IMG/VR virus record: IMGVR_UViG_3300045988_174371 | Location: 296,644-360,643 of that record | Direction: 5' to 3' (one strand) | Length of the DNA: 64,000 nt | Source of the DNA: a virus | Shown here: positions 3,544-38,236 of the stretch, in pieces | Layout: every line of letters begins with the position of its first letter | Position numbering within the stretch: the first letter of the stretch is position 1 | Program-made: the position numbers and the translations under genes | Notes under the pieces: generated by a model | Told to the model about the DNA's origin: nothing | The model's database searches: none | The model's input: only the letters and a program-made list of their open reading frames with translations

Positions 3544-4404
3544 CTATATACAAGGCTCACACTTCACCACAAGATTGTACTTATAGCCAAACCCAAACGT
3601 ATTACCGTATGCTGAAGCCCCATCATCTCCTACCTGTGCTCCAGCGCACGTAACAAGCCATAGTGACCTTGCGCCATCCCTGCGCCACATATCTTCAATG
3701 TCGGTCAGCTGACTCTGAGGAACCGTATACATCTGCGTTACATGCCACTGGGTCACCTTCCCCCCACCGTCAGTCACGAACACCCGCTCACAGCCCTTCA
3801 AGCGATGCAAGTACCCCCACGGGGACAAATAGTAGTTCTGCCTATTGACATGCCCCGCAAGGATTGTTGAGCCCTCTGCGGCTGAAATCCTATTCGACGG
3901 CGAATACCAAATACCGGAACCATCAGTTGTGATAGGTAGAACCATCTTCCCGCTCTGGACACCACTAGGGGTTAGCCTAGTAGAAACACCTAAGGATGGG
4001 ATGCTCCACCCAAAGGCGGGGAGTCCCGCCGGAATATTAGCAGTAATCTTGTTGGCGTCCGCTTCGCAAGTAGGCTCATGCACGGGCTCAGCAGGCTCAG
4101 GGGCGTACAAGGTGTAGTCATCTAGCACAGGCATCTTTTCGTCACCCCCCGCATCTGGCGTAGGCTGATACACCGGCTGACCGGCATCACTCGTCGCAAT
4201 AGGCGTAGCATCCTGATGTGTAGCCGTGTAAGGCACACGAATAGTGTTGTCTTTGCCGACATATGGGCGATATGTAGCCATACCCCACCAAGCGCCGCCA
4301 CCAAGCGCCGCCGCCGCTCCACCAAACACCAGAGCACGCCTAGAAACTAGCGGACTCGACTTATTAGCTTCACTAGATGTAACATTCTCGCTCTGTTTAC
4401 GCAT
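3544..4404 (-). CDS. sortase-family transpeptidase, class-F-like, with N-terminal membrane anchor
   Basis: STILAGHVN (His), LWLVTCAG (Cys), and anchor RRALVFGGAAAALGGGAWW. The position I expect to carry the catalytic Arg reads GYKYNLVV (Lys). Confidence 0.8.
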   Translation of the reverse strand: MRKQSENVTSSEANKSSPLVSRRALVFGGAAAALGGGAWWGMATYRPYVGKDNTIRVPYTATHQDATPIATSDAGQPVYQPTPDAGGDEKMPVLDDYTLYAPEPAEPVHEPTCEADANKITANIPAGLPAFGWSIPSLGVSTRLTPSGVQSGKMVLPITTDGSGIWYSPSNRISAAEGSTILAGHVNRQNYYLSPWGYLHRLKGCERVFVTDGGGKVTQWHVTQMYTVPQSQLTDIEDMWRRDGARSLWLVTCAGAQVGDDGASAYGNTFGFGYKYNLVVKCEPCI

Positions 4405-5766: not shown

Positions 5767-8475
5767 CTAGGAGGCATCCTCAGCGTTCTTCTTGCGACGC
5801 TTCGTGAAGTACACAGCGCCACCCGCAAGAGCCAGAATACCAATACCGCCAGCAACAGCCACAGTAGTAGCATCCATACCGGTAATACCGTAACCAGTGT
5901 CACCAGTCTCAGCCTTAGCCTTCTCAATAGGCTTAGGCTGTTCAGGCTTAGCAGGCTCAGAAGGCTTCGGGGTCTCGGGGGTTACAGGCGGAGGGGTAAC
6001 CTTGGTGACAGTCATGTCGCAACCGTCAGTGTCTTCATCCACGGTAGCGTTCACCTGGCACTCCTTCGGAGGGGTGGTGGGGGTCGGGTCTTCCGGGGTG
6101 GGGTTATTCGTTAGCACGATAGTGTTGAGAATACCCTCAGAGGCGACACGAGCCATGTCAAGGTCGTTCTTGAGAGTGACCTCAACCTCAAACTCGACAG
6201 TCTCACCCGCCTTAAGCTCACCAATTTCCCAGACATTGCCGTTTACGACACCGCGACCGTTAGTGTTCAGGAACTTCACCGAAGCAACATCGAACTGCGC
6301 GTTATCCGGGAACTCGGAGATAACAGCCTTCTCCATGTCAGCACCGGAGGCGTTCTTAGCCTGAGCCTTCCAACGCAAGGTAGCGCCCGGCTTCACCTCA
6401 GATGCAGGAGTCATCAGCTCCTTATTCACCTGACCAGTAATTTCCTTCACACGGTGGATGGAAGTGACGATAGGCTTATTATTGATGGTCACAACACCAA
6501 GGTCACGCATCTCATCAGCCTTAAAGTCGTTCAGGGACTTAGACTCCACCTTAAGAGAGTAGGCGGAATTAACAGCCAGCTTACCCGGCTCCTTAGCGGT
6601 AGCGGTAACCACGTCAGCAACATGACCGTCAAAGTCGGTGCCAGTACCAGAGACGAGCTTACCCTTCTCAACCTTGATGTCGAAGAGGTTGGTTACGTCC
6701 TTGCCATCAGCGTCCACAACCTTAAGCTTATCCTCAGTAATGGACACCAGAGCACGCCAATTGCCGTCGCCGTCCTTCGCATACTCCACAAGGTCAGTGA
6801 TGGAGAACTGCTCAGGTGCCTTCACGCCGGTATTGCCCGTAACGGTCTGAGTCGGCAAATCGTTACCAGCAGGAATAACAATGTCCTCGTTCGCAACGGT
6901 CTTCTCAGGCGCAACATTAGCCAGCTTAATGACCTTCTTGTTCACCTTAACCTCGGGAACCGGCTTCGGGGCAGGCTTAGCCACCGGAGGAAGCTCAGGG
7001 ACAGGCTTCAGAGGCTTCAGCTGAGGCTTCACCGGAGCAACAGCGGTAGGCGCAACAGTGTTAGCGCTCAACATCAAGTGGTTGTAGGAAGCATCAATGG
7101 AGTAGTCGCTGTAGCGGGAAGCGCCGGTGTTCTGCGGGTCACCAATAACACCGTCAGTGCCAGGCACACCCTCATTGCCAGTGGTGCCGAAGAAGAACGT
7201 GCCACCATTCTCCATCAGGTAAGTGACACCCAGGTACTTCAACGCATCGTCGTTCTCATCAAACACTGCGCCGCCCTGGTTCGAACCAGCCTTGATGTAG
7301 AAGCCACGGTCTACCAGCTGAGAAGCAGTACCGTGAACCTTCTGAGCCTCAGGCGCGATACGAGAGTCCTTATTCACGAACGTAGCAAGGACACCCTTAC
7401 CCGGCGCAGTAATCTCGTAACGAACAGCAGACTCAGTACCATTGTTCTCCTGAGCATTCAGAGAACCAACAGTGTTGTAAATCTTCTTCTCGTACTTCTC
7501 ACCAGTATCACCATAGGTGAAGTACAGCTGAACCTCAGAAGCGTAAGACTTCTGCATAGCCACAATGTCATTGTAAGAAGAATAGACATCGTACATGTTC
7601 TGCCACTTAGGAGAACCATCAGCGCCTACCGGAGAGCCGTTCGGGTTGGATACGAAACGAAGAATCTTCACTTCAACATCCAGAGGACGCTTCGTTTCCT
7701 TGTCAATCGCCACACCCTTGTACTTCATGGTCAAGTTCGGGTTGTTCGGGTCAAGGTTAGTGAAACGGTAGGCGTACTCAGACGACCAGCTATCCGGGAA
7801 GTCGGTACGGTCAGCGGTTGAGCCAGCCGGTGCCTTGCCGTTGATGGTTGCGAGGTTATTCGGGCTATCTACAAGCTCGAAAGGCTGTTCCAGCGCAAGC
7901 TTATCAACGTTGTTGATAGCCTTGTACGGGTTAGCGTTGGATACCTGCTCAGCGTACAGCTTGTCGTAAGCCGCCTTCGCCTCGTTGTACCGCTTGGTAG
8001 CTTCCTCGTTTTCCTTGGTAATCTTCTCGTTCTCAGCCTTGATGTCAGCAATCTGCTTCTCAATCTGAGAGCGGTCAGCATTAGCCTTCTCAGCCTTCTT
8101 AGCGTCAGCCTTATTATCAGCGATGGTCTTTACAGCTTCACGCAACTTGGCAATGGTGGCAGTACTTTCCTTCTTAGCCTCAGCAACCTTAGCCTCAGCC
8201 TCAGCCATAGAAGAAACAGTCACCTCCTGAGTCTCACCAGCAGACACCTTGACACCCTGCGCCTCAGCCGCCTTCACAGCCTCATCAAGCGCAGAATAAT
8301 CAACAGGGATGTCCTGCGTGGTCTTACCGTAAGCCTCAGCAGACACAGCACCCTCATACTTGAGGGGCTTCGCCTCATCGGTCGTGATGGCATTAGCCGC
8401 ACCTGCAACAGAGGTCGTGCCAATAAGTGCAAGACCGACACCAGCGGTCATCTTCTTCATAGAACTCTTAGACAT
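5767..8475 (-). CDS. cell-wall-anchored surface adhesin (Ala-rich coiled coil, globular region, Pro-rich linker, DUF11-like Ig domain, sorting signal)
   Basis: Signal peptide MSKSSMKKMTAGVGLALIGTTSVAGAANA. P-rich APVKPQLKPLKPVPELPPVAKPAPKPVPE. C-terminus AKAETG, then a hydrophobic stretch, then KRRKK (LAxTG-like sorting signal). Confidence 0.85.
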   Translation of the reverse strand: MSKSSMKKMTAGVGLALIGTTSVAGAANAITTDEAKPLKYEGAVSAEAYGKTTQDIPVDYSALDEAVKAAEAQGVKVSAGETQEVTVSSMAEAEAKVAEAKKESTATIAKLREAVKTIADNKADAKKAEKANADRSQIEKQIADIKAENEKITKENEEATKRYNEAKAAYDKLYAEQVSNANPYKAINNVDKLALEQPFELVDSPNNLATINGKAPAGSTADRTDFPDSWSSEYAYRFTNLDPNNPNLTMKYKGVAIDKETKRPLDVEVKILRFVSNPNGSPVGADGSPKWQNMYDVYSSYNDIVAMQKSYASEVQLYFTYGDTGEKYEKKIYNTVGSLNAQENNGTESAVRYEITAPGKGVLATFVNKDSRIAPEAQKVHGTASQLVDRGFYIKAGSNQGGAVFDENDDALKYLGVTYLMENGGTFFFGTTGNEGVPGTDGVIGDPQNTGASRYSDYSIDASYNHLMLSANTVAPTAVAPVKPQLKPLKPVPELPPVAKPAPKPVPEVKVNKKVIKLANVAPEKTVANEDIVIPAGNDLPTQTVTGNTGVKAPEQFSITDLVEYAKDGDGNWRALVSITEDKLKVVDADGKDVTNLFDIKVEKGKLVSGTGTDFDGHVADVVTATAKEPGKLAVNSAYSLKVESKSLNDFKADEMRDLGVVTINNKPIVTSIHRVKEITGQVNKELMTPASEVKPGATLRWKAQAKNASGADMEKAVISEFPDNAQFDVASVKFLNTNGRGVVNGNVWEIGELKAGETVEFEVEVTLKNDLDMARVASEGILNTIVLTNNPTPEDPTPTTPPKECQVNATVDEDTDGCDMTVTKVTPPPVTPETPKPSEPAKPEQPKPIEKAKAETGDTGYGITGMDATTVAVAGGIGILALAGGAVYFTKRRKKNAEDAS

Positions 8476-8609: not shown

Positions 8610-8747
8610 TCAGCACCCGCCGTGCATACCCCGAAGGCACAGGGAAAATAAAGAACCCCCGAAAATGTTCCCAGGGCACAGAATGAGTGGGGAGCTAATT
8701 CGAACACTCGAACTAACACCCCACTCATTGCCATATTGAGTTATGAG

Positions 8748-8819
8748 AGCCGGTTGTCGGAATCGAACCGACGACTTGCAATTTACGAGATTGCCGCTCT
8801 ACCACTGAGCTAAACCGGC
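8748..8819 (-). tRNA. tRNA-Thr (anticodon CGT)
   Basis: Hand-folded cloverleaf: GCCGGTT..., anticodon loop CTCGTAA, T-loop GGTTCGATTCC. No encoded CCA. Confidence 0.85.
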
Positions 8820-8918
8820 ATGAACAACGAAAAGAGCGAAAACACACCATTGCTCTAAGGATAGTACATGCGTACCATCAATACGTGTAATACAAAGGTT
8901 AGTACTTCTCGTTGCCCG

Positions 8919-8992
8919 TCGGGATGACAGGATTCGAACCTGTGACCCTCTGCTCCCAAAGCAGATGCGCTACCAAACTGCGCCACACCCCG
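8919..8992 (-). tRNA. tRNA-Pro (anticodon TGG)
   Basis: Cloverleaf CGGGGTG..., anticodon loop TTTGGGA, T-loop GGTTCGAATCC. Confidence 0.85.
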
Positions 8993-10395: not shown

Positions 10396-11826
10396 TTACC
10401 AGACTCGAAGCTTATCGCCGTACCTGTTCTTATCAGAGATTGGCTGAACGTTAAGCGTCTGGTCTTCCATCTCGTAGCGGCGCAACACGTTCTGAATAGC
10501 ATACTCAGAAGTGGTAGCCTGGAAAGCAGTTGCCCTGCTACCGTCAGGGTCACTCAACCTGTCCATCGGCGTAAGGTTCTCACGTATCTGAACCATCAGC
10601 CCCTTCTTATCGTCTACAACGACGTAAGTCTCACGAGTGCCATCCTTATCTGGAGCATTACCAATAATAAGGTTGCCCTTCTCAGCGTCCTCAATCTTCA
10701 CAGACTCAGTGTTCCAGTTCACACGCCTAGATGCCACAGGGTTATGCTCCGTGAGCCTCGGCTCAAACGCGCCCGCGAACTCATCAGCCTGCGCCGTAAT
10801 CATATCGCGCTTACGTCGAGCACTATTCATGATGGATACACGAGTTTCCGGCGAAACGTCAGGGTGCTCACTAAGGATACGCTTCATGTCCTCAGCCTCA
10901 TTGTACTGTTTCACCGGCTCACGCTTAGAAGCCTTAAACTCCTTCGCGTTAGCGTCAAACTCCACCTTACCAGCATCAATCTGCTCCTTGAGGTACTTCC
11001 TCACCTCACGCTTGAGCGCACCTTCGTTACCTGCCTTGAGCGCATTACTGGACTTACTGATGGCGGGCATACCGAACTGCTTGCGGGCAACCTCATAAAG
11101 CTTCCCGGCGTCCATAGAGTCCACACCATCCGCAAGCTCCCTATTGCGGCGAGACTGCTCAGTTAGAGCACTCTCACGTTCCTTAAGGTAGTTCGTCACA
11201 TTATCAAACATCTCCCCATAGGTTCCACTACCTTCATAGGTGCTCACAATACCAGGGTCAGCAGAGCTACGCCCAGCACGGAAATGACCGCCGTTATCGA
11301 GTGCCGCATACTCGTATAGCTCATCCTCATTAGAGTAAACGCGGGCACCGCCTGAGTGAAGCAGGTTCGTACCATCAAGGTCATGCATCGCACCAGTCTT
11401 CAGGTTCACATGACCCCACAACGCCCCATTAGGCGCACGCAGGGAACCGTCTTCCCCAATCTTGTAAACGAGAGCGTCTTGGTCGTTTAGCATGACGTAA
11501 GCGCCAGGCTTGACCTTTGCCTTCAACTTCGCGCCAGCTTCCTTGTGGTAAGCCTTCACAGCTGGCGAAGAATCATGCAGATAGAAGTTCTTACTGATAG
11601 GTGAATTTTTCAGCTGGTCAAGGCTGGAAGTATTGGACTTAATACTTGCCTTAATATCCTCCAGCTTCGCCGGGCCACTCTTTCGCGCCGCCTCATGCTT
11701 TGCATTAGTCGCATCCTTAAGCGCATCACCATACTTCTCAGCGTACAGCTGGTGACGCAACTTATTCAGCTCAACCTCCGGGTTCAACCCAAGCTTGGAC
11801 AGCTCATCAGGCGACACATCCCCCAT
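10396..11826 (-). CDS. family-A paralogue, C-terminal fragment (frame stays open upstream to 11961)
   Basis: Aligns with the C-terminal ~480 aa of the 13016, 15721 and 18237 proteins (PGAYVMLN.QDA.VY, FAGAFEP.LTE.NP..RR, terminal LRVW). Confidence 0.6.
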   Translation of the reverse strand: MGDVSPDELSKLGLNPEVELNKLRHQLYAEKYGDALKDATNAKHEAARKSGPAKLEDIKASIKSNTSSLDQLKNSPISKNFYLHDSSPAVKAYHKEAGAKLKAKVKPGAYVMLNDQDALVYKIGEDGSLRAPNGALWGHVNLKTGAMHDLDGTNLLHSGGARVYSNEDELYEYAALDNGGHFRAGRSSADPGIVSTYEGSGTYGEMFDNVTNYLKERESALTEQSRRNRELADGVDSMDAGKLYEVARKQFGMPAISKSSNALKAGNEGALKREVRKYLKEQIDAGKVEFDANAKEFKASKREPVKQYNEAEDMKRILSEHPDVSPETRVSIMNSARRKRDMITAQADEFAGAFEPRLTEHNPVASRRVNWNTESVKIEDAEKGNLIIGNAPDKDGTRETYVVVDDKKGLMVQIRENLTPMDRLSDPDGSRATAFQATTSEYAIQNVLRRYEMEDQTLNVQPISDKNRYGDKLRVW

Positions 11827-12908
11827 GTAACGCCCCCAAGCCTCACTACTATCAATGCCGTCATTGTGAATGACATCTGCGTTGATATGGTTATAAGCCG
11901 CCTTACGGAAGTATGGGTTAGAGTCCCCGGATACTGAATCATCATATTCTGCATAATTGCGTCATTGACTTGGTTGCCATCTTCACCGTAGTCAGTGATA
12001 GAACGCCAAGCGCGAGTATCGCGCTCACCAGCAACACCATCATACGCCGCGTCAGCCGCCTCATTAAGGAGCTTAAACTCATCCTCATAGTTAGAGGCAA
12101 TAGTCCGCTCCTCAACGTTCAGTTGGTCAGTCTGACCTGTGCGCATAGCCGTCAAAGCTACCCCAAAGTTATGGTACTCACCTTCCAGAGCCTTGTAGTA
12201 ATCGCCGCCCCTGTCCCCATAAGAGTAAGAGTACCCTTGCCTGTCCAATGCAGGCGGAAGCTCCTCAAAGTCGCTCCTAGCAGACATCTTGTAGGTACTG
12301 AGAACTTCCTGGAACTTAGCGAAACCCTCTTCCGTTTCCAGGTCAATGTCTTCCGGCTTAGACCTTTGAACCAGCGGGTGCGTCTCACCTGTCAAAGAGT
12401 CTCGCAATGAAGCCTCTCGCTTAGCCATAAATTCGCCAACAGCTTCACTCATTGACGCGGGAGGCTCATAATCCTCATAATCATCGTCATCCTCCAGGTC
12501 ACCCAAATTAGCGCTCAGCGCTTCTCGAAGTTCCTTCAACCCATCAGACTCAGCCTCAACGGTAGGTTCCTCTGCTACGACATCCTTACCTACGTTCTCG
12601 CGGGCGTACTTCGGGTCAGTCGGCTCACCAGCCAGTAGGTGAGCAATATCTTCAGGGAAGCCCATTTCAACCGCTTCATCGAACGGAATTTTCGACTCGC
12701 CCATAGCCTGAACGTGAATCTGGTACCCTTCCCTTAGGGTGGGTTCAAGAGACTGGAAAGCATTAGAAACTTCTTCCAAGTAGTTGTGCGCTTCCGAAGG
12801 GTCTGCGAAGTGGTTACCGTAAGGGCAACGTCCCTTATCGGCGCGGCATGTACCGCTGGTGAGTTCACCCTTCTTATTGAAACCTACGTGAGTTTTCTGT
12901 GCTGTCAT
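11784..12908 (-). CDS. family-A paralogue, N-terminal fragment
   Basis: MTAQKTHVGFNKKGELTSGTCRADKGRCPYGNHF. Homology to the paralogues ends near ...VNDAIMQNMM; the last ~50 codons are out-of-frame read-through. Confidence 0.6.
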   Translation of the reverse strand: MTAQKTHVGFNKKGELTSGTCRADKGRCPYGNHFADPSEAHNYLEEVSNAFQSLEPTLREGYQIHVQAMGESKIPFDEAVEMGFPEDIAHLLAGEPTDPKYARENVGKDVVAEEPTVEAESDGLKELREALSANLGDLEDDDDYEDYEPPASMSEAVGEFMAKREASLRDSLTGETHPLVQRSKPEDIDLETEEGFAKFQEVLSTYKMSARSDFEELPPALDRQGYSYSYGDRGGDYYKALEGEYHNFGVALTAMRTGQTDQLNVEERTIASNYEDEFKLLNEAADAAYDGVAGERDTRAWRSITDYGEDGNQVNDAIMQNMMIQYPGTLTHTSVRRLITISTQMSFTMTALIVVRLGGVTWGMCRLMSCPSLG

Positions 12909-12941
12909 ATTAGTTATCTATCCTTTTCATTGTTTCAAGTG

Positions 12942-12987
12942 TGCGGTGTGCGCCATGTAAGCAATAAGCCACATGGCGCACACCGCA
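12942..12987 (-). terminator. 17-bp hairpin tgcggtgtgcgccatgt/acatggcgcacaccgca
   Basis: Between the stop at 13016 and the start at 12908. Confidence 0.6.
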
Positions 12988-13015
12988 TATTGCCCTCTAT
13001 CGGGCGAAAAATGTC

Positions 13016-15544
13016 TTACCAGAGAATAAGGTCGTAATCGTTATCACTCTCGTAAGGCATATCCAGGACTTCAAGGCTAGTATCGCCCATCTTGTAGCGG
13101 TTAAGGATGTCAGTGACCGCATAGTCGGAAGTCATAGACTGATGGCTATCAGGAACCAATAGACCCTTAGAGTCGCTAGTGCTCTTCGCGTTCCTATGCT
13201 GTGAAGTGACCGTATGGAGAGGCACCATGCGCCCCTTCTCGCGGTCTACCACAACAAACGTAGGATGCTGGTCTTTCTCCTTATCCACTGAGTTGAACAG
13301 AATGTCGCCAGTTCGAGCATACTTAGGTGCCACACGCTTATTGTCCCAGACCCTACGCCTATGGGCGGATGGGTTGTTCTCAGTGAGCTTAGGCTCAAAA
13401 GCTCCCGCAAACTCATCGCCCTGCGTGGTGACACGGTTACGTGAACGCCTTGCCGCATTGATGATAGACATCTTCGTGGCTACAGGGGTGGTAGTGCCCA
13501 ACAAATCAACAAGAGACTTCTTAGGCTTGTAGTCACTCAACGGCTTACGGTTAGCCTTGACGATACTGCCAGTCTTCGGGTTGTACTTAGCCTTACCGTC
13601 ATTAAACTGCTTCTCCAAGAAATCCTGAACCATGATTTCTTTCTTAAACTGCCCCTCAGCACTATTGTCATCAGCAAGTTCCTTGTCGAAGGCGGGCATC
13701 CCAAACCTTGACGTAGCAACCTTGTACAGCTCGCTAGTGTCCTTGCCGCTAATTGCAGTGCTGTACTCCTGACGGATGGTTGAAGCATGGGCTAGAGCTT
13801 TCTCTTCACGCTTCAAATACTCCAGAGCACGCGCATATTTCTTCGCGTACTTCGGGTCGTCCTCGTAGCGGGAGCGGTAGCCAGGGTCGGAAGAAACAAT
13901 CTCATCGTCAGCCAATCCCGGACGGTCATCAAGCGCCGCATGGCTAATCAGCTCATTCTCATCAGCGTAAACAGTGACACCGCCACTATCTCGCGTAACG
14001 TTCCTACCGTGAGCGTTATACACCTTGCCCGACTTCGTATCCACGTAGCCCCACGTCTTACCATCAGGAGTAATGAGCGCGCCTTCATCGTCAATCTGGT
14101 ACACCTCAGCATCGTGCCCGTGAAGCATGACGTATGCGCCTGGCTTCAGCTTCTCCGCAACACGGCGACCTGACTCCTCATAATAATCGTTCGCAAGGAA
14201 ATTGTCGTCCCTATATGCGAATGGCTTCTCCAAGATGGAGCTATCTACTGACCTGGGGATGGTTCCGTAGGCTTCTATGTTCGCCTTAATCTCATCAACG
14301 TACAAGCCCTTAGCGGTCGCATTCGCGGACTTCTTCGCGCCTGCGTCCTTAGCGAGCATGTCAGTGTACTTATTGATGAACATGCGGTGACGGAACCTAT
14401 TCATCTCAATGTCTGGCTCGTACCCCATCTCAGTAGGAGCACTTCGCGGTATGCCGTAGGGTCCAATGACGCGATGCCAGTCAGCATCCCCTGCTACACC
14501 GTCATTGTGGATAAGGTCGCCGTTAATAGCTTCATCCGCCTGCCTGCGGAGCGACTTGTCTTCCCCTTTCATCTTCCTGAAAAGAGTGTCTTGGGTAATC
14601 AAGTCGTTAATTTCGTTGCCGAACTCGCCATAGTTTGCCATAGTCCTGAACGCTGGCGACCCTGGGAGATATATCCCCTGCGCATCATAGGCTTTACCAG
14701 CCTCATAATCAGTTTCAATATGGCTCAACAGGACATTGTTAATCATGTCTCGACGGGCTTTGTCGCGCTCATCCAGTCGCTCAAGGTTCCCGGTACGAAG
14801 AGCATTAACTGCTCCTGCGTACCTGTGAAGTTCCTTCTTCATCCGGTCACGGTCGCCGTTAGGGTCATGCCCCTCATAGATTGCGTCACGCAAGTAAGGG
14901 GACATTGCTTCAAACTCTTCCCCGTCCGAAAGCCTATAACTGTCCAGTACCTTACGGAAAAGGCGATACCCTTCATCTGTATCCAATTCAATCGGAACCA
15001 TAGGGTACCTATCATGGTCAATCCCTGCGGCACCTATCTCCTCTAGAAGTTTAGCCTTAGGGTTCGAGGCATCCACGGATGCTACCTTAGGTTCCTCCTG
15101 GGGGGGGGTGGGGGCGGCTTCTTTCGACTCAGGTTCAGCTCCCATAGGTGAGCCCTTAGGCTCCTCAACGGGTTCCTCCTTTACCTCTGACACCTCAGAG
15201 ACAGGCTCAGTGGGCTCAACGTCCTTGCCGACGTTCTCGCGCGCGTACTTCGGGTCAGTCGGCTCACCAGCCAGTAGGTGAGCAATATCTTCAGGGAAGC
15301 CCATTTCAACCGCTTCATCGAACGGAATTTTCGACTCGCCCATAGCCTGAACGTGAATCTGGTACCCTTCCCTTAGGGTGGGTTCAATGCTCTGGAATGC
15401 TAGTGAGACCTCCTCAAGGTAGTTATGGGCTTCGGCGGGGTCTGCGAAGTGGTTACCGTAAGGACAACGACCCTTCTCGGCGCGGCATGTACCGCTGGTG
15501 AGTTCACCCTTCTTGTTGAATCCTACGTGGGTTTTCTGTGCCAT
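13016..15544 (-). CDS. family-A large protein (N-terminal His/Cys module, conserved C-terminal region)
   Basis: ATG at 15544 gives MAQKTHVGFNKKGELTSGTCRAEKGRCPYGNHF. The ORF-track start at 15556 is TTG. Ends ...DYDLILW. Confidence 0.8.
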   Translation of the reverse strand: MAQKTHVGFNKKGELTSGTCRAEKGRCPYGNHFADPAEAHNYLEEVSLAFQSIEPTLREGYQIHVQAMGESKIPFDEAVEMGFPEDIAHLLAGEPTDPKYARENVGKDVEPTEPVSEVSEVKEEPVEEPKGSPMGAEPESKEAAPTPPQEEPKVASVDASNPKAKLLEEIGAAGIDHDRYPMVPIELDTDEGYRLFRKVLDSYRLSDGEEFEAMSPYLRDAIYEGHDPNGDRDRMKKELHRYAGAVNALRTGNLERLDERDKARRDMINNVLLSHIETDYEAGKAYDAQGIYLPGSPAFRTMANYGEFGNEINDLITQDTLFRKMKGEDKSLRRQADEAINGDLIHNDGVAGDADWHRVIGPYGIPRSAPTEMGYEPDIEMNRFRHRMFINKYTDMLAKDAGAKKSANATAKGLYVDEIKANIEAYGTIPRSVDSSILEKPFAYRDDNFLANDYYEESGRRVAEKLKPGAYVMLHGHDAEVYQIDDEGALITPDGKTWGYVDTKSGKVYNAHGRNVTRDSGGVTVYADENELISHAALDDRPGLADDEIVSSDPGYRSRYEDDPKYAKKYARALEYLKREEKALAHASTIRQEYSTAISGKDTSELYKVATSRFGMPAFDKELADDNSAEGQFKKEIMVQDFLEKQFNDGKAKYNPKTGSIVKANRKPLSDYKPKKSLVDLLGTTTPVATKMSIINAARRSRNRVTTQGDEFAGAFEPKLTENNPSAHRRRVWDNKRVAPKYARTGDILFNSVDKEKDQHPTFVVVDREKGRMVPLHTVTSQHRNAKSTSDSKGLLVPDSHQSMTSDYAVTDILNRYKMGDTSLEVLDMPYESDNDYDLILW

Positions 15545-15626
15545 AATGTTATCCAATCAAAAGATGCTTTTACTATGGTGTTTGTTATAGGCGGCTTATC
15601 GGTCGTTGATTTCCGCTTATAACACC

Positions 15627-15635
15627 TATATATCA
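15627..15635 (-). promoter_or_regulatory. extended -10 promoter TGATATATA
   Basis: Between the paralogues, preceded by the long inverted repeat ggggcgggtgcctca/tgaggcgcccacccc. Confidence 0.45.
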
Positions 15636-15720
15636 GGGGTGGGCGCCTCATTGCTGAATAGGAATCCCTACAGCACGTGTGAGGCACCCGCCCCTGGAAC
15701 TACATCCGTCACCTATCGCG

Positions 15721-18117
15721 CTACCATAGTTCCAAGTCGTCATTATCTTCAAAGGAGACGTTCTGCACGTTGAGGGATGAATCCTCTACCTGGTGGCGGT
15801 GTTCTATATTCTCAATCGTGTACTCAGAAGCCAGTGCGTTAATTCCGGTTGAGGTGGGGGTGGTGTCCAGCCTATCCACGGGTATCTTGTTGTTGCGGAT
15901 AGCCGCGATACTGCCTTTCTCCCTATCAACTACCACGTAGACATCGCGAGTGCCATCAGGTTTAGCTTTCTTACTGTAGAGCAGATTGCCGTTCTCGGCT
16001 TCACGCAGAGACATCTTCTTAGCGTTACCCCAATTCCTGCGCCTATGCGCCGATGGGTTACTCTCAGAGATTTTCTCCTCAAACATACCAGCAAATCGGT
16101 CTGCCTGAGAAGTGACCATATCGCGTTGCCGCCTTGCCGCATTAACAAGAGAAACCTTCACCTCAATAGGCAAAGACCCGTCTATCGTGTCATAGGGACT
16201 CCCTGTGGGGGCGAAGGACTCCACATTCGGTCGCTTCGCGGGAACGATAGTTTGCCTCTTAGATGAGTAGCGGATAGAGCCCTCGTCAATTTTCTTGTCC
16301 AAGTAATTGTGGAGAGCTCTCCTGCCTGGCTCGTCAAGCTTGCCTCTGAGCTTTGCTATGGGCGGCATCTCAAACCGCTCCACCGCAAGCTTATACATCG
16401 CATCAGGCGTAGGGTGCCCAGCTAGGAGGCTCTTCTCCCTATTGCGGGCGGCACGCTCCCTCGCGGCACGTTCTTTACGGCGGAAGAAGTTCAATACGCG
16501 CTTGAAGGGTCGCTTATACTTTGGCTCTTGCTCATACTTGCTGAAGCGCCCTGGGTCTGCCGAATCCTTACCTGCCTCGTCGTGAGGTGAATCGTCAAGA
16601 GCGGCGTACTGCATCAACTCTGCCTCATTCTCATATACGCGGGCACCACTTGTGGTGAACACTTCGTGACCGTCCTGCCCAATGATAACGCCGGTTTCGT
16701 AGTCCACTCGCCCCCATACACCACCACTGGTTGTTCGCAGGTTACCGTCCTCGTCCAGGCGGTACACTTCAGCGTCTTGCCCATTAAGCATCACAAAAGC
16801 GCCAGGCTTAAGCTTCTCACGGGTGCGCTTAACTGCTGACTGGTAGTACTCTTCGGAGATAACCCTCTTATCTTTACTTACGTAAGATGGTTCCCATTTA
16901 GGGGTTCCAGTGCTTTGGGGAGCCTTAGGGGTAGGCGGTTGGTTCTCAAGCATAGCTTGTTTCCTGAGGGCGGCTTCTTTCCTGAACTTGCTGTCTTGAA
17001 GCTCGCTCAGGTACATCCGTACAGCTCTAGAATGCTTTTCTGTAGCCATAGTGAGCTCAAGCTGTGCCTGTAGCTTCTCGTCACCGTCTTCCATCTTGCC
17101 GATAGCTTTAATGAGCTCATCGTAATTCGGCTTATGTGGGTCTTCTGGTGGTACCCCATATTTTGCCCGCAGTGCCGCCGCAAGGCGCTCACTCTGCCCC
17201 CTAACTGCTTCACGATGAATGAGTTTACCATTGATTGCCTTACGCGCCTCCAGGAACTCGCTATACGTATCGCCATTCGACATCTCCGCAAGCCTATCCT
17301 GAATAAGCCTGTCTTCCAGCTCATGACCATCTTCACCGTAATCAGTGACAAATTTCCACTTGTCATCATCATCGGTCTTCTTCACAGGTATGCCCTGCTC
17401 AGCGGATGCCTGCCTCATGACTTCCTTAAAGTACCTGGCGCGCGCAGTAAGCTCCACCACCCGCTCGGCATCAGCCGAAGAAATCTCGTCAGTCAAACCC
17501 AAACGCATCTTCGCCAAGGTCTTACCGAACCTACGGTATTCCTCAACGAAATTGTCCTTCTTCACGTCACCCTCACCCTCCAAGGTTTTAATGTCTTCGA
17601 GGATATACGGCGGAGGTGAGTCGAAATCTTCCGGCGCTGACACCTTATAGCCCCGCAAGATTGTGTACATCTTGCGGACATCATCAGGGTTATCCAAGTC
17701 CAGCTTAGGGGCTTTGCCGCTACCCTCCTGAAACTCGCTCTCGCTCTCCACAATGAGTGGCGCAGACTCACCCTTAACCTCTGCTTCGACGTACTCTCGG
17801 GCGTACTTCGGGTCGGTAGGCTCACCTGCAAGAAGCTTCGCAACCTCCTCAGGGAAACCCTTAGCTTCAGCAACTTCTAGAGGTATCTTACTGAATCCAC
17901 CTTCCTGCTTCGCCTGCTCATCGATATAGCCTTTAAGCTCCGGGGACAGAGAATTGACAAGCTCTGACGTGCGCTCTAGATAGTCATGAGCATCTGATGG
18001 GTCGGAAAAGTGGTTGCCGTAAGGGCAACGACCCTTCTTCGCGTCGCACTTACCGCTAGTGAGCTCACCCTTCTTATTGAACCCAACGTGAGTTTTGTTT
18101 TCCATAGTGTCTTCCAT
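15721..18117 (-). CDS. family-A large protein
   Basis: MEDTMENKTHVGFNKKGELTSGKCDAKKGRCPYGNHF (alternative ATG at 18105). Ends ...DDLELW. Confidence 0.8.
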   Translation of the reverse strand: MEDTMENKTHVGFNKKGELTSGKCDAKKGRCPYGNHFSDPSDAHDYLERTSELVNSLSPELKGYIDEQAKQEGGFSKIPLEVAEAKGFPEEVAKLLAGEPTDPKYAREYVEAEVKGESAPLIVESESEFQEGSGKAPKLDLDNPDDVRKMYTILRGYKVSAPEDFDSPPPYILEDIKTLEGEGDVKKDNFVEEYRRFGKTLAKMRLGLTDEISSADAERVVELTARARYFKEVMRQASAEQGIPVKKTDDDDKWKFVTDYGEDGHELEDRLIQDRLAEMSNGDTYSEFLEARKAINGKLIHREAVRGQSERLAAALRAKYGVPPEDPHKPNYDELIKAIGKMEDGDEKLQAQLELTMATEKHSRAVRMYLSELQDSKFRKEAALRKQAMLENQPPTPKAPQSTGTPKWEPSYVSKDKRVISEEYYQSAVKRTREKLKPGAFVMLNGQDAEVYRLDEDGNLRTTSGGVWGRVDYETGVIIGQDGHEVFTTSGARVYENEAELMQYAALDDSPHDEAGKDSADPGRFSKYEQEPKYKRPFKRVLNFFRRKERAARERAARNREKSLLAGHPTPDAMYKLAVERFEMPPIAKLRGKLDEPGRRALHNYLDKKIDEGSIRYSSKRQTIVPAKRPNVESFAPTGSPYDTIDGSLPIEVKVSLVNAARRQRDMVTSQADRFAGMFEEKISESNPSAHRRRNWGNAKKMSLREAENGNLLYSKKAKPDGTRDVYVVVDREKGSIAAIRNNKIPVDRLDTTPTSTGINALASEYTIENIEHRHQVEDSSLNVQNVSFEDNDDLELW

Positions 18118-18136
18118 CTTTCAACATGCATTTAGC

Positions 18137-18177
18137 AGTAGTGGGGGTGAAAGTCGAAAACCTTCACCCCCACTACT
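18137..18177 (-). terminator. hairpin agtagtgggggtgaa/ttcacccccactact
   Basis: 15-bp stem between paralogues, immediately downstream of a -10 motif. Either a terminator or a 5'-UTR hairpin. Confidence 0.5.
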
Positions 18178-18180
18178 AAC

Positions 18181-18191
18181 TATATATCGCA
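18181..18191 (-). promoter_or_regulatory. extended -10 promoter TGCGATATATA
   Basis: Motif directly upstream of the 18137-18177 hairpin and of the start at 18117. Confidence 0.4.
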
Positions 18192-18236
18192 TATAACCAG
18201 CGCTATGAAGCACCTACCAGTAAGGTTGTATGTATA

Positions 18237-20690
18237 CTACCAGCGGCGCAACGGTTGCCGCGCCTTATCGTTCTCTTCATCCGTAGGAATCTGCATCACC
18301 GGCAGGTACGGGTCAGCAGACTTGTAACGGTTGATGATGTTCTGAATCGTGTACTCTGATGCAACAGGGTTCGACAAGCCGGAGCCCGTACCCACAATAC
18401 GTGGGTCTAGGTTAGCCTGAGGGGTAAGCCCCTCATTCACAGGAACCATCAGACCCTTATCGCGGTCTACCACAACATATGCGGGGGTAGCGCTCACCAT
18501 GTCGCCAACATTTTCGACTAGTATCTGCCCGTTGCTCGCGCCGCTAATTCGACTACTCGCACCATCTGAACGGCGGTGAGTAACAGCCGCATAGTCATTC
18601 GGTGGAGCGTCCATACCGCCCGCGAACTGGTCAGCCATTCCAGTCTGAAGCTCACGCTTACGCCTTGCCGCATTCACAACTGAAACACGCTCAGTGGGCG
18701 TAAGGTTCTCGGTGCCTGCCACATACATAGCGTCACCCTCAGGCTTGAACGCATCAATGGGCTTACGGTTCGGGTTGTAGAACCCGCCCTTACTTGCGTC
18801 ATATCCCAGCGTACCCGCCTGAACCTTCTTATCGATGTACTTTCGAGTGTAGCTCTTGAGCGCACCCAAGGTTCGCGGGTTTGGGTTGGAGTCGTATGCC
18901 TGAGACCTGGGCATACCAAGCTCAGCTACCGCACGCTCGTACAAGTCTTCGACATCTTGCGAATTGACAGCCTTAGTGACCTCATGGGCACGCTTGGAAC
19001 GCTCAGTGAGGAGAGCTTCCTCCTGCTTCAGATGGTTGTATACATTGGCGAACGCATCCGTGTACTTCGGGTCGCTCTCGTAGCGGCTCTTGTAGCCGGG
19101 GTCAGCAGACGTAACGCCAGGCTCATTGTGGGAGCCGTTATCAAGGGCGGCGTAGCGCATCAGCTCAGCACTGTTCGCGTAGACACGTGCACCGCCAGCA
19201 GACGAGATGTTCTGACCATCAGCCGTGTACATGTTGCCCGACTCAAAATCAACGTAACCCCACAGCTTGCCATCATTAGTGCGAATACCGCCCTCATGGT
19301 CAATCTGATAAGCCTCAGCATCCATACCGCCCATCATGACGCAAGCGCCAGGCTTCAGGATGGACTTAGTGCGCTCTGCCGCACGCTCATAGTACTCCAA
19401 CTCTGCCGGGGTACTTGCGTGAGCGGTGTTGTCGTAGAACGGTGTGCTGTGGACGATGCCTGCGTTGCGCTTCTTAACTGCTTCACGAATCTCTTCAACG
19501 CTATTTGGAACCTTGGCATTAGCCGCCGCCTTAGCCTCACGGGTAGCCCTCAGCATGTCGCTGTATGCGTTGATGTAGTTGTGTTGCTGAAGCTTACGCG
19601 CTTCGCTAGGTGCAAACTTTGCATATCCAATGGGGCGCTTAACGTCAGGGGTTTCGCTCCCCCTATCCTTACCGCCATAAATCTGCACAACCCTGCCATC
19701 AATCGCGTTGTACGCCTCCTCACGGTCTTCAGGTAGCTCGCCCTGAACCTTACGTGAGAGAAGGTCGTGAACAATCTTGTCGTTGAGTTCGTTGCTCTCT
19801 TCGCCGTAATGTTTGAGGTCTGAGCGAACCTTAGTCTCCATCTCTTCATCGGAGTAGTCACCGTTCAGGTCTGCGTCCCTATCAAGCTTCGCCATAGACT
19901 CGACAAGGTACCCGAACTGCTCCTGTTCCTCAGGGGGGAGCTGGTCAAGCATATTGACGCGGTAAGCGGCTAGGGCTTTACCAAAGTTCTGGTAAGCCTC
20001 AAGGGGCGCAGGGTCGCGCTCCTCAGCAGGAGTGAAGATGCCGCCACGTAGAGCCTTCAACTCATCTGGGAGGTTTCCCTCGCTAAAGTCTGCCGGTGAG
20101 GACATCTTGTAGGCGCTCAGAATCTCCTGAAAGCGCTCCATATCCTCAGGAGTATCTAGTGATGCAGGAGGCTCCACAGCTTCAGGCTTAGGCTTCTCCT
20201 GGCGCTTACGTCGGGGCTTCTTCGGCTTCTCCTCAGGAGCAGTCTCCGCCTTTACCTCTGCGACAGACTCAGGTTCGGCTTCTCCAACCTCTTCCACAGG
20301 TTCAGCCTTAGGCTCCTCGGCAGGCTCAGGCGCGACTGGCTCGGGCTTCTCTGCAACAGGCTCAATGTCCTTGCCGACGTTCTCGCGCGCGTACTTCGGG
20401 TCAGTCGGCTCACCCGCAATAAGGTGTGCAATGTCCTCAGGGAAGCCCATATCAACCGCCTCATCGAACGGAATCTTTGACTCACCCATCACTTCCACGT
20501 GGATTTGGTAACCTTCCACCAGCTCAGGCGGGAGCGACTGGAAAGCCTCCGAGACTTCCTCCAGATAGTTGTGTGCTTCGTTGGGGTCAGCAAAGTGGTT
20601 ACCATAAGGGCAACGACCCTTCTTTGCGTCACATTTACCGCTAGTCAGCTGACCATCCTTATTGAAGCCGACGTGGGTTTTCTGCGTCAT
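18237..20690 (-). CDS. family-A large protein
   Basis: MTQKTHVGFNKDGQLTSGKCDAKKGRCPYGNHF. E/P/K-rich linker. Ends ...QPLRRW. Confidence 0.8.
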   Translation of the reverse strand: MTQKTHVGFNKDGQLTSGKCDAKKGRCPYGNHFADPNEAHNYLEEVSEAFQSLPPELVEGYQIHVEVMGESKIPFDEAVDMGFPEDIAHLIAGEPTDPKYARENVGKDIEPVAEKPEPVAPEPAEEPKAEPVEEVGEAEPESVAEVKAETAPEEKPKKPRRKRQEKPKPEAVEPPASLDTPEDMERFQEILSAYKMSSPADFSEGNLPDELKALRGGIFTPAEERDPAPLEAYQNFGKALAAYRVNMLDQLPPEEQEQFGYLVESMAKLDRDADLNGDYSDEEMETKVRSDLKHYGEESNELNDKIVHDLLSRKVQGELPEDREEAYNAIDGRVVQIYGGKDRGSETPDVKRPIGYAKFAPSEARKLQQHNYINAYSDMLRATREAKAAANAKVPNSVEEIREAVKKRNAGIVHSTPFYDNTAHASTPAELEYYERAAERTKSILKPGACVMMGGMDAEAYQIDHEGGIRTNDGKLWGYVDFESGNMYTADGQNISSAGGARVYANSAELMRYAALDNGSHNEPGVTSADPGYKSRYESDPKYTDAFANVYNHLKQEEALLTERSKRAHEVTKAVNSQDVEDLYERAVAELGMPRSQAYDSNPNPRTLGALKSYTRKYIDKKVQAGTLGYDASKGGFYNPNRKPIDAFKPEGDAMYVAGTENLTPTERVSVVNAARRKRELQTGMADQFAGGMDAPPNDYAAVTHRRSDGASSRISGASNGQILVENVGDMVSATPAYVVVDRDKGLMVPVNEGLTPQANLDPRIVGTGSGLSNPVASEYTIQNIINRYKSADPYLPVMQIPTDEENDKARQPLRRW

Positions 20691-20720
20691 TTTCTATTAT
20701 CCTTATCTTCATTTAGTTAC

Positions 20721-20757
20721 AGGTGGAGAGGCGAAGCTATTCTACGCCTCTCCACCT
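20721..20757 (-). terminator. hairpin aggtggagaggcg/cgcctctccacct
   Basis: 13-bp stem between the stop at 20792 and the start at 20690, immediately after a -10 motif. Confidence 0.5.
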
Positions 20758-20759
20758 CA

Positions 20760-20768
20760 TATATATCA
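20760..20768 (-). promoter_or_regulatory. extended -10 promoter TGATATATA
   Basis: Same promoter-then-hairpin arrangement as at 18181 and 58112. Confidence 0.45.
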
Positions 20769-20791
20769 AACAGTCCGCACCACCAGGGAGC

Positions 20792-22213
20792 TTAATGACC
20801 GCCGCCGCGTGCGCCGCCGTAAGGGGCATACCTAACACCCGTATCGTAACGTACCCATCCACATACAGCTGAACCGTTCACAATGTACGCCTGCATGGAG
20901 TGGTCTAGCCCCTCCCATGCGAAGCCTCTTTGTTCGCGAGGGTTCGGGGCGTTATCCCAAAGCTCCTTACATTCGTCAAATACGAGCATGTCAATCCCCG
21001 CATCATGCAGTTTCTTCCAATCGATACTGTATGTGTCTGCCGCTTCATCGTAAGTAATGAACCTATCCTCGAAGAACCTTGCCTCAGTTGGGCTTTTGAT
21101 GTTAAGCACGGTACTGTTGCGGTTAAACACAGGGGCATAGACGTGGGGGGTCTGAATGTAGTCGCCGTTTTGGTCATTCACTCGAAGATGGTCAGTAGTG
21201 ATGGTTGCAGAGTTGTAGTTGTAGAACCCGCCCGTCATCTCAAAAGCACCAGACCTATACGCATTGCCGGTGATGCTTTCTCCAGCCTTTCGGCGCGCCG
21301 CCCACGCCCGCTCCTTATCGTCAGCATCCTTACGGATAAGAGGGGCACTCAGTACGACATCGGGGAAGTCGTAATCTGGGCGGTTCGGTAGCCCGTCCAC
21401 CTTCGGGTTGTCGGCTAGTGTAGGGGTGAAGTATGGGCGGGCACCCCTGTACCCCTGAATGTGCTCTACAGACATGCCGGAAAGTATGGGGTTGTTGTAG
21501 TCACATTCCACCCGGTCGATACGTGCAGGGTTCGATTCGTAGTCTGCGATGAACAGGTACTCTTCGTTCTGGTCTAGGTTGAGGATGCCGCCGTGGTTAG
21601 CTTGAATGAATGGGTCTCGCGTGTAAATAAACACGTCGTGGCTTGCCATGTCTGTAGACGGGGTGCCGGTAATCGCCTGAGATTCGTCTTGGTACTCGTA
21701 ATCCAACGTGTACGCTTCACGCCCGTTATACTGCGTGATAGTGGGCTGTTGCCTCGTCTCAATCTCAATCTTCTTCCTAATCCACTTCTCGGAAGCCTGA
21801 GGGTATTTCATCCTAAGCTCAGCACGTTCCTGCTCATTCTGGAAACGCGGCATAAACTCACCATTTGGTAGCCACGGAGCCCACGGGTCATCATTGGCAT
21901 ACCCTGCGCCTTCCATCTCACGGATAGGTGGATTCGTCTTATCTCTCAGCTTCCGCGTAAGCCACTCTCGGAACTCTGGAGTGTCCAACTTCTGCCCGCT
22001 AGCGGCTAAAGCAGTGCTTTTAGCGGCTATCTCAGCATTCACCGAACCGACGTATTCCATGACGGAAGTCATGAACGCTAGGTCACCGTGAACCTTAGGG
22101 ACACCAACGTTTTCACTATTGAGGTGCTTGTAAGGGCACCCTTCAGGTGATGTGCAGGGGAGCATACGTAGCTCACCCGTCTCTGCGCTAGGGGAAAAAT
22201 GCATGAAAGCCAT
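20792..22213 (-). CDS. hypothetical protein with N-terminal H-C-C-H (CPY) module
   Basis: MAFMHFSPSAETGELRMLPCTSPEGCPYKHL... No purine-rich RBS; GGGTATACT lies just upstream. Confidence 0.75.
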   Translation of the reverse strand: MAFMHFSPSAETGELRMLPCTSPEGCPYKHLNSENVGVPKVHGDLAFMTSVMEYVGSVNAEIAAKSTALAASGQKLDTPEFREWLTRKLRDKTNPPIREMEGAGYANDDPWAPWLPNGEFMPRFQNEQERAELRMKYPQASEKWIRKKIEIETRQQPTITQYNGREAYTLDYEYQDESQAITGTPSTDMASHDVFIYTRDPFIQANHGGILNLDQNEEYLFIADYESNPARIDRVECDYNNPILSGMSVEHIQGYRGARPYFTPTLADNPKVDGLPNRPDYDFPDVVLSAPLIRKDADDKERAWAARRKAGESITGNAYRSGAFEMTGGFYNYNSATITTDHLRVNDQNGDYIQTPHVYAPVFNRNSTVLNIKSPTEARFFEDRFITYDEAADTYSIDWKKLHDAGIDMLVFDECKELWDNAPNPREQRGFAWEGLDHSMQAYIVNGSAVCGWVRYDTGVRYAPYGGARGGGH

Positions 22214-28318: not shown

Positions 28319-28629
28319 ATATAGTTACCATCCTAAAACTTGTAGTACAGGCGGGCTTCCTACCAACATGCGGCATACGGCACCGACCTACTGACACATT
28401 CTACCACAGTTTACGGATGTACTACGGAGTGAACTACCGGCACCACTCACTAAATGTGTGGTAGGCGTATCTAACTGCTTCGATGGGTGCCTAAATGGGC
28501 GACCAAAAGCGGGATGAAGTAACAGAAGCGTGGCGGTGAGCTCAAGTAACCATAATGAGCTCACCGCCACGCTTCTGTGAAAATAAATGCGGAACCCCTA
28601 ACAAGCAGGGGTGGTATTCAGTTGTGAAG

Positions 28630-28718
28630 CGGATAGAGCGGGATTCGAACCCGCGGGGCACCGCTAAGCACCCTCTGGTTTTCAAGACCAGTGCCTTCAG
28701 CCACTCAGCCACCTATCC
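28630..28718 (-). tRNA. tRNA-Ser (anticodon TGA), class II
   Basis: GGATAGG..., anticodon loop CTTGAAA, long variable arm, T-loop GGTTCGAATCC. Confidence 0.85.
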
Positions 28719-28747
28719 AAATACAGCTAAACTGGGTTTAGCTGACG

Positions 28748-28819
28748 CTGAGGCGCTAGGACTCGAACCTAGAACTTCGGCTTCAGAGACCGACGTGTTG
28801 CCAATTACACCACGCCTCA
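28748..28819 (-). tRNA. tRNA-Gln (anticodon CTG)
   Basis: TGAGGCG... (U1-A72), anticodon loop CTCTGAA. Confidence 0.85.
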
Positions 28820-28843
28820 TTAAACCCATATTCAATTATGGTG

Positions 28844-38217: not shown

Positions 38218-38236
38218 AAACACCTTTCAGTAGCGA

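Follow-up and report, generated by a model that had tools for sequence, protein, structure and literature searches.

The 64,000-nucleotide (nt) stretch analysed here, referred to as the window, covers positions 296,644 to 360,643 of the IMG/VR virus record IMGVR_UViG_3300045988_174371 and belongs to a longer contig (ERZ989713 k127_64826; 360,715 bp) assembled from a metagenome of the human mouth. Between positions 10,396 and 20,690 it carries a tandem array of genes encoding paralogous proteins of around 800 amino acids (aa), which is the subject of this study. An initial annotation had recognised head-to-tail paralogues in this interval, and this was borne out, with every copy on the minus strand; it had counted five of them, although only three intact genes were listed, and the array in fact consists of four copies, three intact and one frameshifted. 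As defined by open reading frames (ORFs) and alignment, copy A (18,237–20,690) is intact, encodes 817 aa and is the first gene of the array. Copy B (15,721–18,117) encodes 798 aa, or 794 aa in a public gene call that begins at an MENK start (window position 18,105). Copy C (13,016–15,544; 842 aa) is intact in the window and bears a poly-C tract. Copy D (10,396–12,908) is disrupted into a 374-aa N-terminal ORF (11,784–12,908) and a 476-aa C-terminal ORF (10,396–11,826). The exact protein encoded by copy A is present on five contigs, the 360,715-bp oral metagenome contig among them.

Paralogy of the four copies is far above chance, with BLASTP E values of 1e-46 to 1e-164, and within the window the copies matched only one another. 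They are not assembly duplicates, because outside the N-terminus their nucleotide identity is only 0.39–0.52, confirming the previous impression that the copies are not near-identical DNA. DNA alignment with four related contigs (L010, L003, L008, and L011) attributed the split of copy D to the loss of a single G, the minus-strand run at 11,925–11,928 being G4 in the window and G5 in those contigs. The orthologues of copy D in the same four contigs are intact and encode 834–840 aa, and both fragment products of the disrupted gene are on record from three to four contigs. The linker region of copy D further contains a 9-nt in-frame repeat at 12,474–12,483, GATTATGAG (Asp-Tyr-Glu), the number of which differs among related contigs.

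Based on alignment and a predicted structure, the family members are four-part proteins, composed of an N-terminal module (N-module), an acidic, Pro/Glu-rich disordered linker, a fast-diverging all-helical domain, and a conserved alpha/beta C-terminal core ending in a terminal Trp. The AlphaFold2 (AF2) model of copy A, calculated from an alignment of 27 sequences, reached a mean predicted local distance difference test (pLDDT) of 79.2 and a predicted template modelling score (pTM) of 0.70. Residues 1–100 were modelled as three short strands and four helices, residues 109–170 as disordered, and residues 181–444 as entirely helical, followed by a small beta-barrel (450–504), more helices, and a sheet that includes the final strand. 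The middle regions had been described as acidic and divergent, in agreement with a net charge of −10 to −24, an Asp plus Glu content of 20–21% and the lowest aa identity between copies (21–30%). The C-terminus had been described as conserved; the motif blocks quoted for it are present, but its ~390 aa are just 35–38% identical between copies. The Trp noted at the end of all copies was found in each of them, and W817 is invariant across 16 diverse members of the family. The other invariant residues in this set are K4, H6, G13, C20, C27, H32, and E44 in the N-module and P447, G448, D457, Y461, G467, G492, D530, G532, S535, E538, R706, and R707 further downstream, and D742 is kept in at least 90% of members. 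Thirteen invariant residues are located in the C-terminal 390 aa, and the polar ones suggest a binding or catalytic site shared by the family. No transmembrane segment, signal peptide or sorting signal was apparent in the proteins (maximal 19-residue hydropathy, 1.25).

Database searches returned very few relatives and no annotated homologue. Pfam, PHROGs, NCBIfam, and PADLOC gave no match for the family or for its seven nearest neighbour genes. In Pfam no family was found at E ≤ 0.1 for any copy, and searching the domains separately yielded nothing relevant at E ≤ 10; sequence profile searches of the PDB with the whole family and with the N-module likewise gave no match. A word-indexed search of 5.8 billion proteins retrieved 40 clusters, all from ENA, Logan or JGI assemblies with the exception of one NCBI record, and an exhaustive HMMER scan of 1.84 billion representative proteins detected only 26 relatives. 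All relatives with a listed source derive from metagenome assemblies, on contigs of up to 380 kb. Megablast and tblastn did not detect the family in GenBank phages or PLSDB plasmids, and neither the family nor the sortase encoded near the array was found in representative genomes of 185,579 species, by which no host could be assigned. Foldseek searches with the AF2 model retrieved nothing meaningful, the best E values being 0.64 (PDB) and 0.79 (BFVD), with TM-scores of at most 0.2 for the top-ranked matches. The profile and structure searches proposed in the initial annotation thus detected no homology to a known structural or enzymatic family, and it is firmly supported that the family is lineage-restricted, modular, and an orphan both by sequence and by the structure libraries compared (PDB, BFVD).

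The N-module is the most distinctive part of these proteins. In copy A it comprises aa 1–108 (20,367–20,690, minus strand), contains the invariant His6, Cys20, Cys27, and His32, and ends with GEPTDPKYARE; the equivalent segments, likewise on the minus strand, are 17,782–18,117 in copy B, 15,221–15,544 in copy C and 12,582–12,908 in copy D. The four His and Cys residues were invariant in sets of 27, 12, and 16 sequences and are placed as candidate metal ligands on or beside the three short strands of the AF2 model. Judged from the residue pattern and the model, the N-module is probably a zinc knuckle followed by four helices. No known zinc-finger family matched it in the domain-wise Pfam search or among PDB sequence profiles, and a profile of the N-module on its own returned just short fragments of the same family. 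The N-terminus had been called near-identical among the copies, which holds for A, C, and D (85–95% aa identity) but not for B, whose N-module is the most deviant of the four (64–65% identity to the others).

Several lines of evidence demonstrated that the N-module has a history different from that of the remaining protein. A tree of the C-terminal 390 aa resolved four old gene types, with types A, C, and D each represented in both the window lineage and the lineage of locus L004, whereas in a tree of the N-terminal 105 aa the sequences clustered by genome and not by gene type. Within the window, the N-modules of A, C, and D are 85–95% identical compared to 23–38% for the rest of the proteins. 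Between the window and L004 lineages the relation is reversed, as type D proteins share 54% of their N-module residues and 72–85% of the rest. At four-fold degenerate sites, copies C and D show an identity of 0.77 in the N-module and of 0.26–0.47 elsewhere. A similar contrast is seen in copy A on comparison with contig L003, where the N-module is 89% and the rest 99% identical, with synonymous divergence (dS) of 0.56 and 0.05, respectively. When N-modules and bodies were typed separately, N type was decoupled from body type even among near-identical strains. Nor is the N-module confined to the array: in L032 (6,896–7,879) and in protein P0089 it is joined (65–70% identical) to an otherwise unrelated ~190-aa body, and the surrounding genes differ, with membrane-protein genes next to it. 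It is therefore firmly supported by these comparisons that the N-module is exchanged among copies and is present on other cargo. A further protein, P0090 (425 aa), shares only the knuckle (E = 7.8e-4); its Lys/Asn-rich sequence suggests a low-GC source, and it was likewise absent from GenBank phages and PLSDB plasmids. An N-module that is matched within a genome, lineage-specific, and portable fits a domain docking to one partner encoded by the element.

For comparison of the arrays, 32 related loci were collected, in which three lineages share the neighbourhood; L001 is the window contig itself. Gene order is constant, with genes for proteins of 827, 567, 291, and 473 aa preceding the array and genes for a 96/141-aa protein, a 261-aa protein, an adhesin, a 266-aa protein, and a sortase following it. 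The number of intact copies in contrast varies from one to four across the 32 loci. Four were found in L008 and L010, two to four in the L004 lineage, and three in the distant lineage (26–30% identity) wherever a contig covers the whole array, while L005 retains one intact copy and a chimeric fragment. In one strain (L005 and L006, 9,908–11,443) the array is reduced to copy A and this 255-aa N-terminal fragment, in which, in L005, a B-type start is joined to a D-type middle; this structure fits the product expected from a deletion by recombination inside two N-modules. Behind the fragment, both loci carry an unrelated ORF for a basic 222-aa protein that has no Pfam match. We consider it firmly supported by these assembled loci that the array gains, loses, and breaks copies. 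The 473-aa gene (20,792–22,213, minus strand) is always located directly before the array, and the N-terminus of its product, MHF...GEL...C-x5-CPY, resembles the knuckle in a motif scan. Alignment of this protein with the family by hhalign was weak (E = 0.011, probability 3.7%), only five clusters of homologues were found, all in Logan or ENA assemblies, and its AF2 model was poor (pLDDT 49.5).

The initial annotation had interpreted the array as a diversifying family engaged in an arms race, a view that stood up in part. In favour of an accessory, conflict-type role, the family outpaces its syntenic neighbours in divergence, copy number is variable, single copies have been broken repeatedly, and one copy bears a poly-C tract that looks hypermutable. 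Types A and C are 43–46% identical to those of the L014 lineage, where the 473-aa protein, the adhesin, and the sortase reach 76–90%; compared to the distant lineage the values are 26–29% for the family and 56–69% for the 291-aa and 473-aa proteins, the adhesin, and the sortase. Sub-lineages that agree at 94–96% in A, C, and D share only ~62% identity in the body of copy B. On the other hand, type D is kept at 79–93% between lineages, and the ratio of nonsynonymous to synonymous substitution rates (dN/dS), a check named in that annotation, was 0.05–0.13 in the folded domains of close orthologues and 0.25–0.6 in the linker. Close orthologues are consequently under strong purifying selection, and these ratios lend no support to the term diversifying in the sense of positive selection.

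These values also bear on the idea that the array is an assembly artefact or a set of decaying pseudogenes, for which the frameshifted copy in the window and the frequent split copies in relatives could be cited. Such an explanation is hardly credible and we regard it as refuted by the divergence of the copies, which are 39–52% identical in DNA outside the N-module, by the independent assembly of the same array from many samples, by dN/dS ratios of 0.05–0.13, which indicate selection on each gene type, and by the confident AF2 model.

The poly-C tract of copy C is a run of nine C residues at 15,100–15,108 on the minus strand (G9 on the plus strand), which falls near codon 146, within the disordered linker. 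It is the sole G/C run of eight or more nt in the 64-kb window, the next longest being seven, and across related loci totalling 537 kb, almost every G/C run of at least eight nt is situated in or beside the family. Among 51 Pro-Pro pairs encoded in 27 window genes, the one in this tract is the only one written as CCCCCC, and the tract is pure despite synonymous alternatives. In seven independent contigs, tract length corresponded to the reading frame. With C9 (window contig, L010, and L008) the frame is intact and encodes 842–846 aa, with C10 (L011, L009, and L007) it is split into 113–156 aa and 686/717 aa, and with C8 (L003) into 157 and 686 aa. Among the cluster members listed, 686-aa forms were found on at least 18 contigs and ~840-aa forms on at least 21. 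In locus L016, an intact copy has C13 in its linker and another copy is split at a C8 run. The tract is therefore a candidate for a slipped-strand ON/OFF switch, that is, a contingency locus, as judged from the assembled alleles.

As the tract is placed in the disordered linker, a frameshift parts the N-module (~155 aa) from the body. An AGGAGG directly follows the C9 run (15,074–15,099, minus strand), and AAGG is located 8 nt ahead of an in-frame GTG (~15,074–15,076) with which the 686-aa ORF begins in the OFF alleles. Judged from the sequence, the untagged 686-aa body might therefore still be translated in OFF alleles. Poly-C runs of 8, 9, 10 or 12 nt are also found ~55–65 nt upstream of the first family copy in L019–L031 and in L004 (15,250–15,260). 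Located between the 473-aa gene and the array, they make up the 3′ arm of a hairpin with a T run behind it (predicted stability −22 to −31 kcal/mol depending on run length), and their interpretation as phase-variation switches in the distant lineage was rejected, since they represent one arm of a terminator-like hairpin.

Hypermutable tracts are familiar from bacteria but, to our knowledge, documented in very few phages. A published precedent for hypermutable polyG tracts in genes of phages (Sorensen et al. 2021, Cell Rep 35:109214) is cited in PMC10877375. The tract of copy C is like those reported for these Campylobacter phage genes in that a long G/C homopolymer is located inside the frame, its length decides on production of the full protein, and variants occur within a lineage. 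The Campylobacter genes reportedly encode receptor-binding proteins of ~130-kb phages infecting a Gram-negative host, whereas the protein described here looks non-fibrous and carries its tract in a disordered linker.

The gaps between the copies are short (100–180 bp); in none of them does an ORF reach 80 aa, and immunity-type genes are thus lacking. It had been stated that each gene possesses its own −10 motif and hairpin. A strong hairpin was indeed detected in every gap (z-scores −3.0 to −7.8), and the motif GATATATA precedes it upstream of A, B, and C, but only a degenerate form, CAATATGC, is present upstream of D. In the gap upstream of A (20,691–20,791, minus strand as all others) the motif at 20,760–20,767 is followed by a hairpin with a 13-bp stem at ~20,721–20,757, and upstream of B (18,118–18,236) the motif at 18,181–18,188 is followed by one with a 19-bp stem at ~18,137–18,177 (z −6.0). 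The gap upstream of C (15,545–15,720) contains the motif at 15,627–15,634, then a hairpin at ~15,583–15,624, and a second hairpin farther upstream; the gap upstream of D (12,909–13,015) contains a hairpin of ~20 bp at ~12,942–12,987 (z −7.8). A generic scan for sigma-70 promoters and terminators found nothing in the array gaps. The window contains six GATATATA sites compared to 0.85 expected, and the motif is a candidate for an element-specific promoter. The sites start at 15,627, 18,181, 20,760, 61,479, and 62,785 on the minus strand and at 22,332 on the plus strand; three of them precede family copies and two are located inside an array of transfer RNA (tRNA) genes. In the distant lineage the same motif, as CTGATATATA, comes after the stop codon of the 473-aa gene.

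Copies with promoter-like motifs of their own would also suit proteins synthesised once infection has begun and never packaged. According to this explanation, the family members would act in the cytoplasm in takeover of the host or against its defences, the N-module would dock to a hub of the host or the phage, and switching and copy loss would let the element steer clear of hosts in which a given copy is sensed by abortive-infection systems. The proteins look soluble and acidic and lack an export signal, the family diverges faster than its neighbours, copies are individually dispensable, A, B, and C each have a promoter-like motif and a hairpin of their own, and poly-C length follows the reading frame, all of which would be in line with such a conflict-related role. 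No match to PADLOC or to known anti-defence families was obtained, however, and docking to a host hub would keep the N-module conserved among lineages of one host, whereas in type D it is the least conserved part (54% versus 72–85%). We consider this explanation somewhat unlikely.

In the element carrying the array, GC content of the window is ~52% (49–56%), and 25 tRNA genes are encoded in its 64 kb (8,747–8,992, 28,629–28,916, 50,432–50,506, and 57,963–63,675), 19 of them in one array of 5.7 kb. IMG/VR lists two related contigs (307 and 319 kb), both carrying the family. Based on the IMG/VR contigs, the tRNA genes, and the recurrence of contigs of ~300–380 kb, the element is a putative huge phage. 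In a survey of oral phages, genomes larger than 200 kb that can hardly be annotated numbered in the thousands, and Actinobacteriota were the predicted hosts of some (PMC12297358). Scanning ~35 window proteins against Pfam and 20 against PHROGs identified only a sortase (3,544–4,404), an antigen I/II-type adhesin, an AAA ATPase, a VWA-type protein, and a marginal match to a tail sheath protein (PHROGs, E = 0.004). The adhesin (5,767–8,475; 902 aa) ends with KAETG, a hydrophobic stretch, and a basic tail; adhesin and sortase are kept in all lineages examined with 64–90% identity. About 14 kb past the window edge, a SecA homologue of 1,167 aa is encoded (L033, 16,157–19,660). Sortase, adhesin, and SecA homologue are an unusual cargo for a phage. 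At and just beyond the window start (1–1,471, minus strand, cut by the window edge; L033, 10,952–14,347) are a Cas12f1-like/TnpB gene (535 aa, PF07282) and a C5 DNA methylase gene (PF00145); together with the SecA homologue, these genes were found in the stretch followed beyond the window on that one side, without any phage hallmark. A second paralogue family of seven genes (37,048–44,202 and 48,998–50,170, minus strand) encodes proteins of 238–548 aa with 22–51% identity over local BLASTP matches of 27–375 aa. It has no Pfam match, nor did any of the five members scanned match in PHROGs, and it flanks the genes for an AAA/MoxR-type ATPase (44,331–45,896) and a VWA/DUF2201 protein (45,936–47,762).

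This gene content raises the alternative that the array belongs to a resident, giant plasmid-like element, with the family serving in host physiology or being exported unconventionally, for instance via the element's own SecA homologue, along with the adhesin and the sortase. The conserved neighbourhood of family, adhesin, and sortase in all lineages, the SecA homologue, and the lack of a structural-protein match among the 20 window proteins compared to PHROGs speak for it, as does the existence of giant oral extrachromosomal elements with sortase and LPXTG-type proteins. These elements, the Inocles of oral Streptococcus, have a size of ~350–400 kb, a GC content of 24–32%, and genes for a sortase and a sortase-anchored protein (PMC12340149). 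The element described here resembles them, as compared by description and not by sequence, in its origin from the human mouth, its size range, its mostly uncharacterised genes, and its sortase with a sortase-anchored surface protein. It differs in its GC content of 52% versus 24–32%, on which ground its assignment as an Inocle was rejected, and in its 25 tRNA genes in 64 kb and its relatives in IMG/VR. The two related IMG/VR contigs, the tRNA genes, and the GC content likewise speak against a plasmid-like element in general, and family members possess no signal peptide, sorting signal or transmembrane segment and were not detected in the genomes representing 185,579 species. A role in a resident plasmid-like element appears quite unlikely.

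A constant N-terminal module with variable downstream parts, recombination at the boundary, and tandem cassettes are features that the array shares with polymorphic effector and toxin arrays (LXG, Rhs, and contact-dependent inhibition (CDI) systems) and with the tailspikes TSP1–4 of phage CBA120. In those systems, the constant N-terminal module is used for trafficking or anchoring. The array differs from them in that the C-terminal ~390 aa are conserved, the gaps carry no immunity gene, and no toxin or tailspike fold was found. According to a further alternative, the proteins would be exposed on the virion surface as receptor-binding or tail-accessory proteins, the N-module would anchor alternative members to one baseplate or adaptor site, and slippage would vary the host range, as reported for Campylobacter phages. 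A conserved, exchangeable N-terminal anchor in combination with tandem paralogues is typical of multi-tailspike phages, and the array resembles these in both respects. Copy number differs among relatives, and for polyG tracts in phage genes there is the precedent of Sorensen et al. 2021 cited in PMC10877375. However, the AF2 model shows a globular and chiefly helical protein that lacks any fibre, beta-helix or beta-sandwich head domain, no tail protein was matched by Foldseek and nothing at all in PHROGs, and a conserved C-terminus with a variable internal part is the reverse of what receptor-binding proteins show. In addition, no recognisable tail gene is located nearby. Surface exposure is improbable.

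The explanation we tentatively favour, with doubt still prevailing, is that the family members are modular accessory proteins of a clade of oral phage-like elements of ~300–380 kb, which dock via the shared N-module to one partner of the phage, are loaded into the virion, and are delivered together with the DNA. The N-module would represent a docking or address domain common to all copies. With one shared partner, the N-module would have to match across all copies of a genome, and recombination between copies would maintain the match. Through docking, the proteins would most likely enter the virion and be delivered along with the DNA; the conserved C-terminal core would perform a common activity and the variable helical domain would set target specificity. 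The repertoire would be tuned by N-module exchange, by deletion of intervening copies through recombination between N-modules, and by frame breaks at homopolymer runs; at the level of the assembled alleles, exchange, deletion, and changes in homopolymer length have clearly altered the set of proteins encoded.

The closest parallel for packaged paralogues is provided by the head proteins of the giant phages phiKZ and SPN3US (phiKZ gp93/94/95/162/163, SPN3US gp53/gp54; PF12699), which are candidate inner-body or ejection proteins (PMC5694885). These families have two to seven members in related phages, and gp53 and gp54 of SPN3US share identical N-terminal propeptide residues (PMC5694885). The family described here is similar in being a paralogous family of variable member number, without enzymatic annotation, in a very large, putative phage genome. 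In contrast, neither a search of its sequence for PF12699 nor a structural comparison with BFVD gave a match, and its common N-terminus is a folded 108-aa His/Cys module and not a short cleaved propeptide. Its members are ~800 aa long compared to ~31 kDa for the two processed SPN3US proteins. In the head paralogues, the prohead protease removes an N-terminal propeptide at a motif S/A/G-X-E. An A-R-E is present at the end of the N-module in two lineages, and no protease gene was identified among the scanned window proteins.

Several observations weigh against packaging and co-delivery. The A-R-E at the boundary (residues 101–103) is found in the window and L004 lineages, and distant members have ERD, TRE or no equivalent. 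The capsid-targeting sequences known to us are short peptides or cleaved propeptides, never a folded 108-aa domain. No capsid, portal, terminase, protease or tail hallmark was detected among the scanned proteins of the window, which represents 64 kb of ~360 kb. Genes for a sortase, an adhesin with a sortase anchor, and a SecA homologue would suit an element residing in its host like a plasmid just as well as they would suit a phage. Finally, the poly-C lengths derive from consensus assemblies of different samples and not from reads of one population.

The observations would also be compatible with a more far-reaching proposal, which we rate as unlikely, namely that the array constitutes a cassette system. 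A portable His-Cys-Cys-His tag would universally load or deliver interchangeable cargo in a clade of oral huge phages, recombination would reshuffle the tag, the poly-C tract in the linker would reversibly uncouple tag from cargo, and each burst would thereby give rise to virions, or infections, that differ in their set of effectors. If true, a system of this kind has not yet been described in viruses.

The human mouth commonly harbours huge phages and phage-like elements, the genes of which are for the most part uncharacterised. The array resembles the paralogue families of giant phages, modular effectors, and the homopolymer switches of phages but is a member of none of them. With its orphan fold, a shared domain matched by recombination, and a possible simple-sequence switch, the locus represents a testable case of how an accessory set of proteins diversifies. 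If the N-module is indeed a tag for packaging or delivery, it would provide a handle to find other cargo proteins and a way to load foreign ones. Even if the proteins turn out to have a plain structural role, the locus would remain a record of module exchange among viral paralogues.

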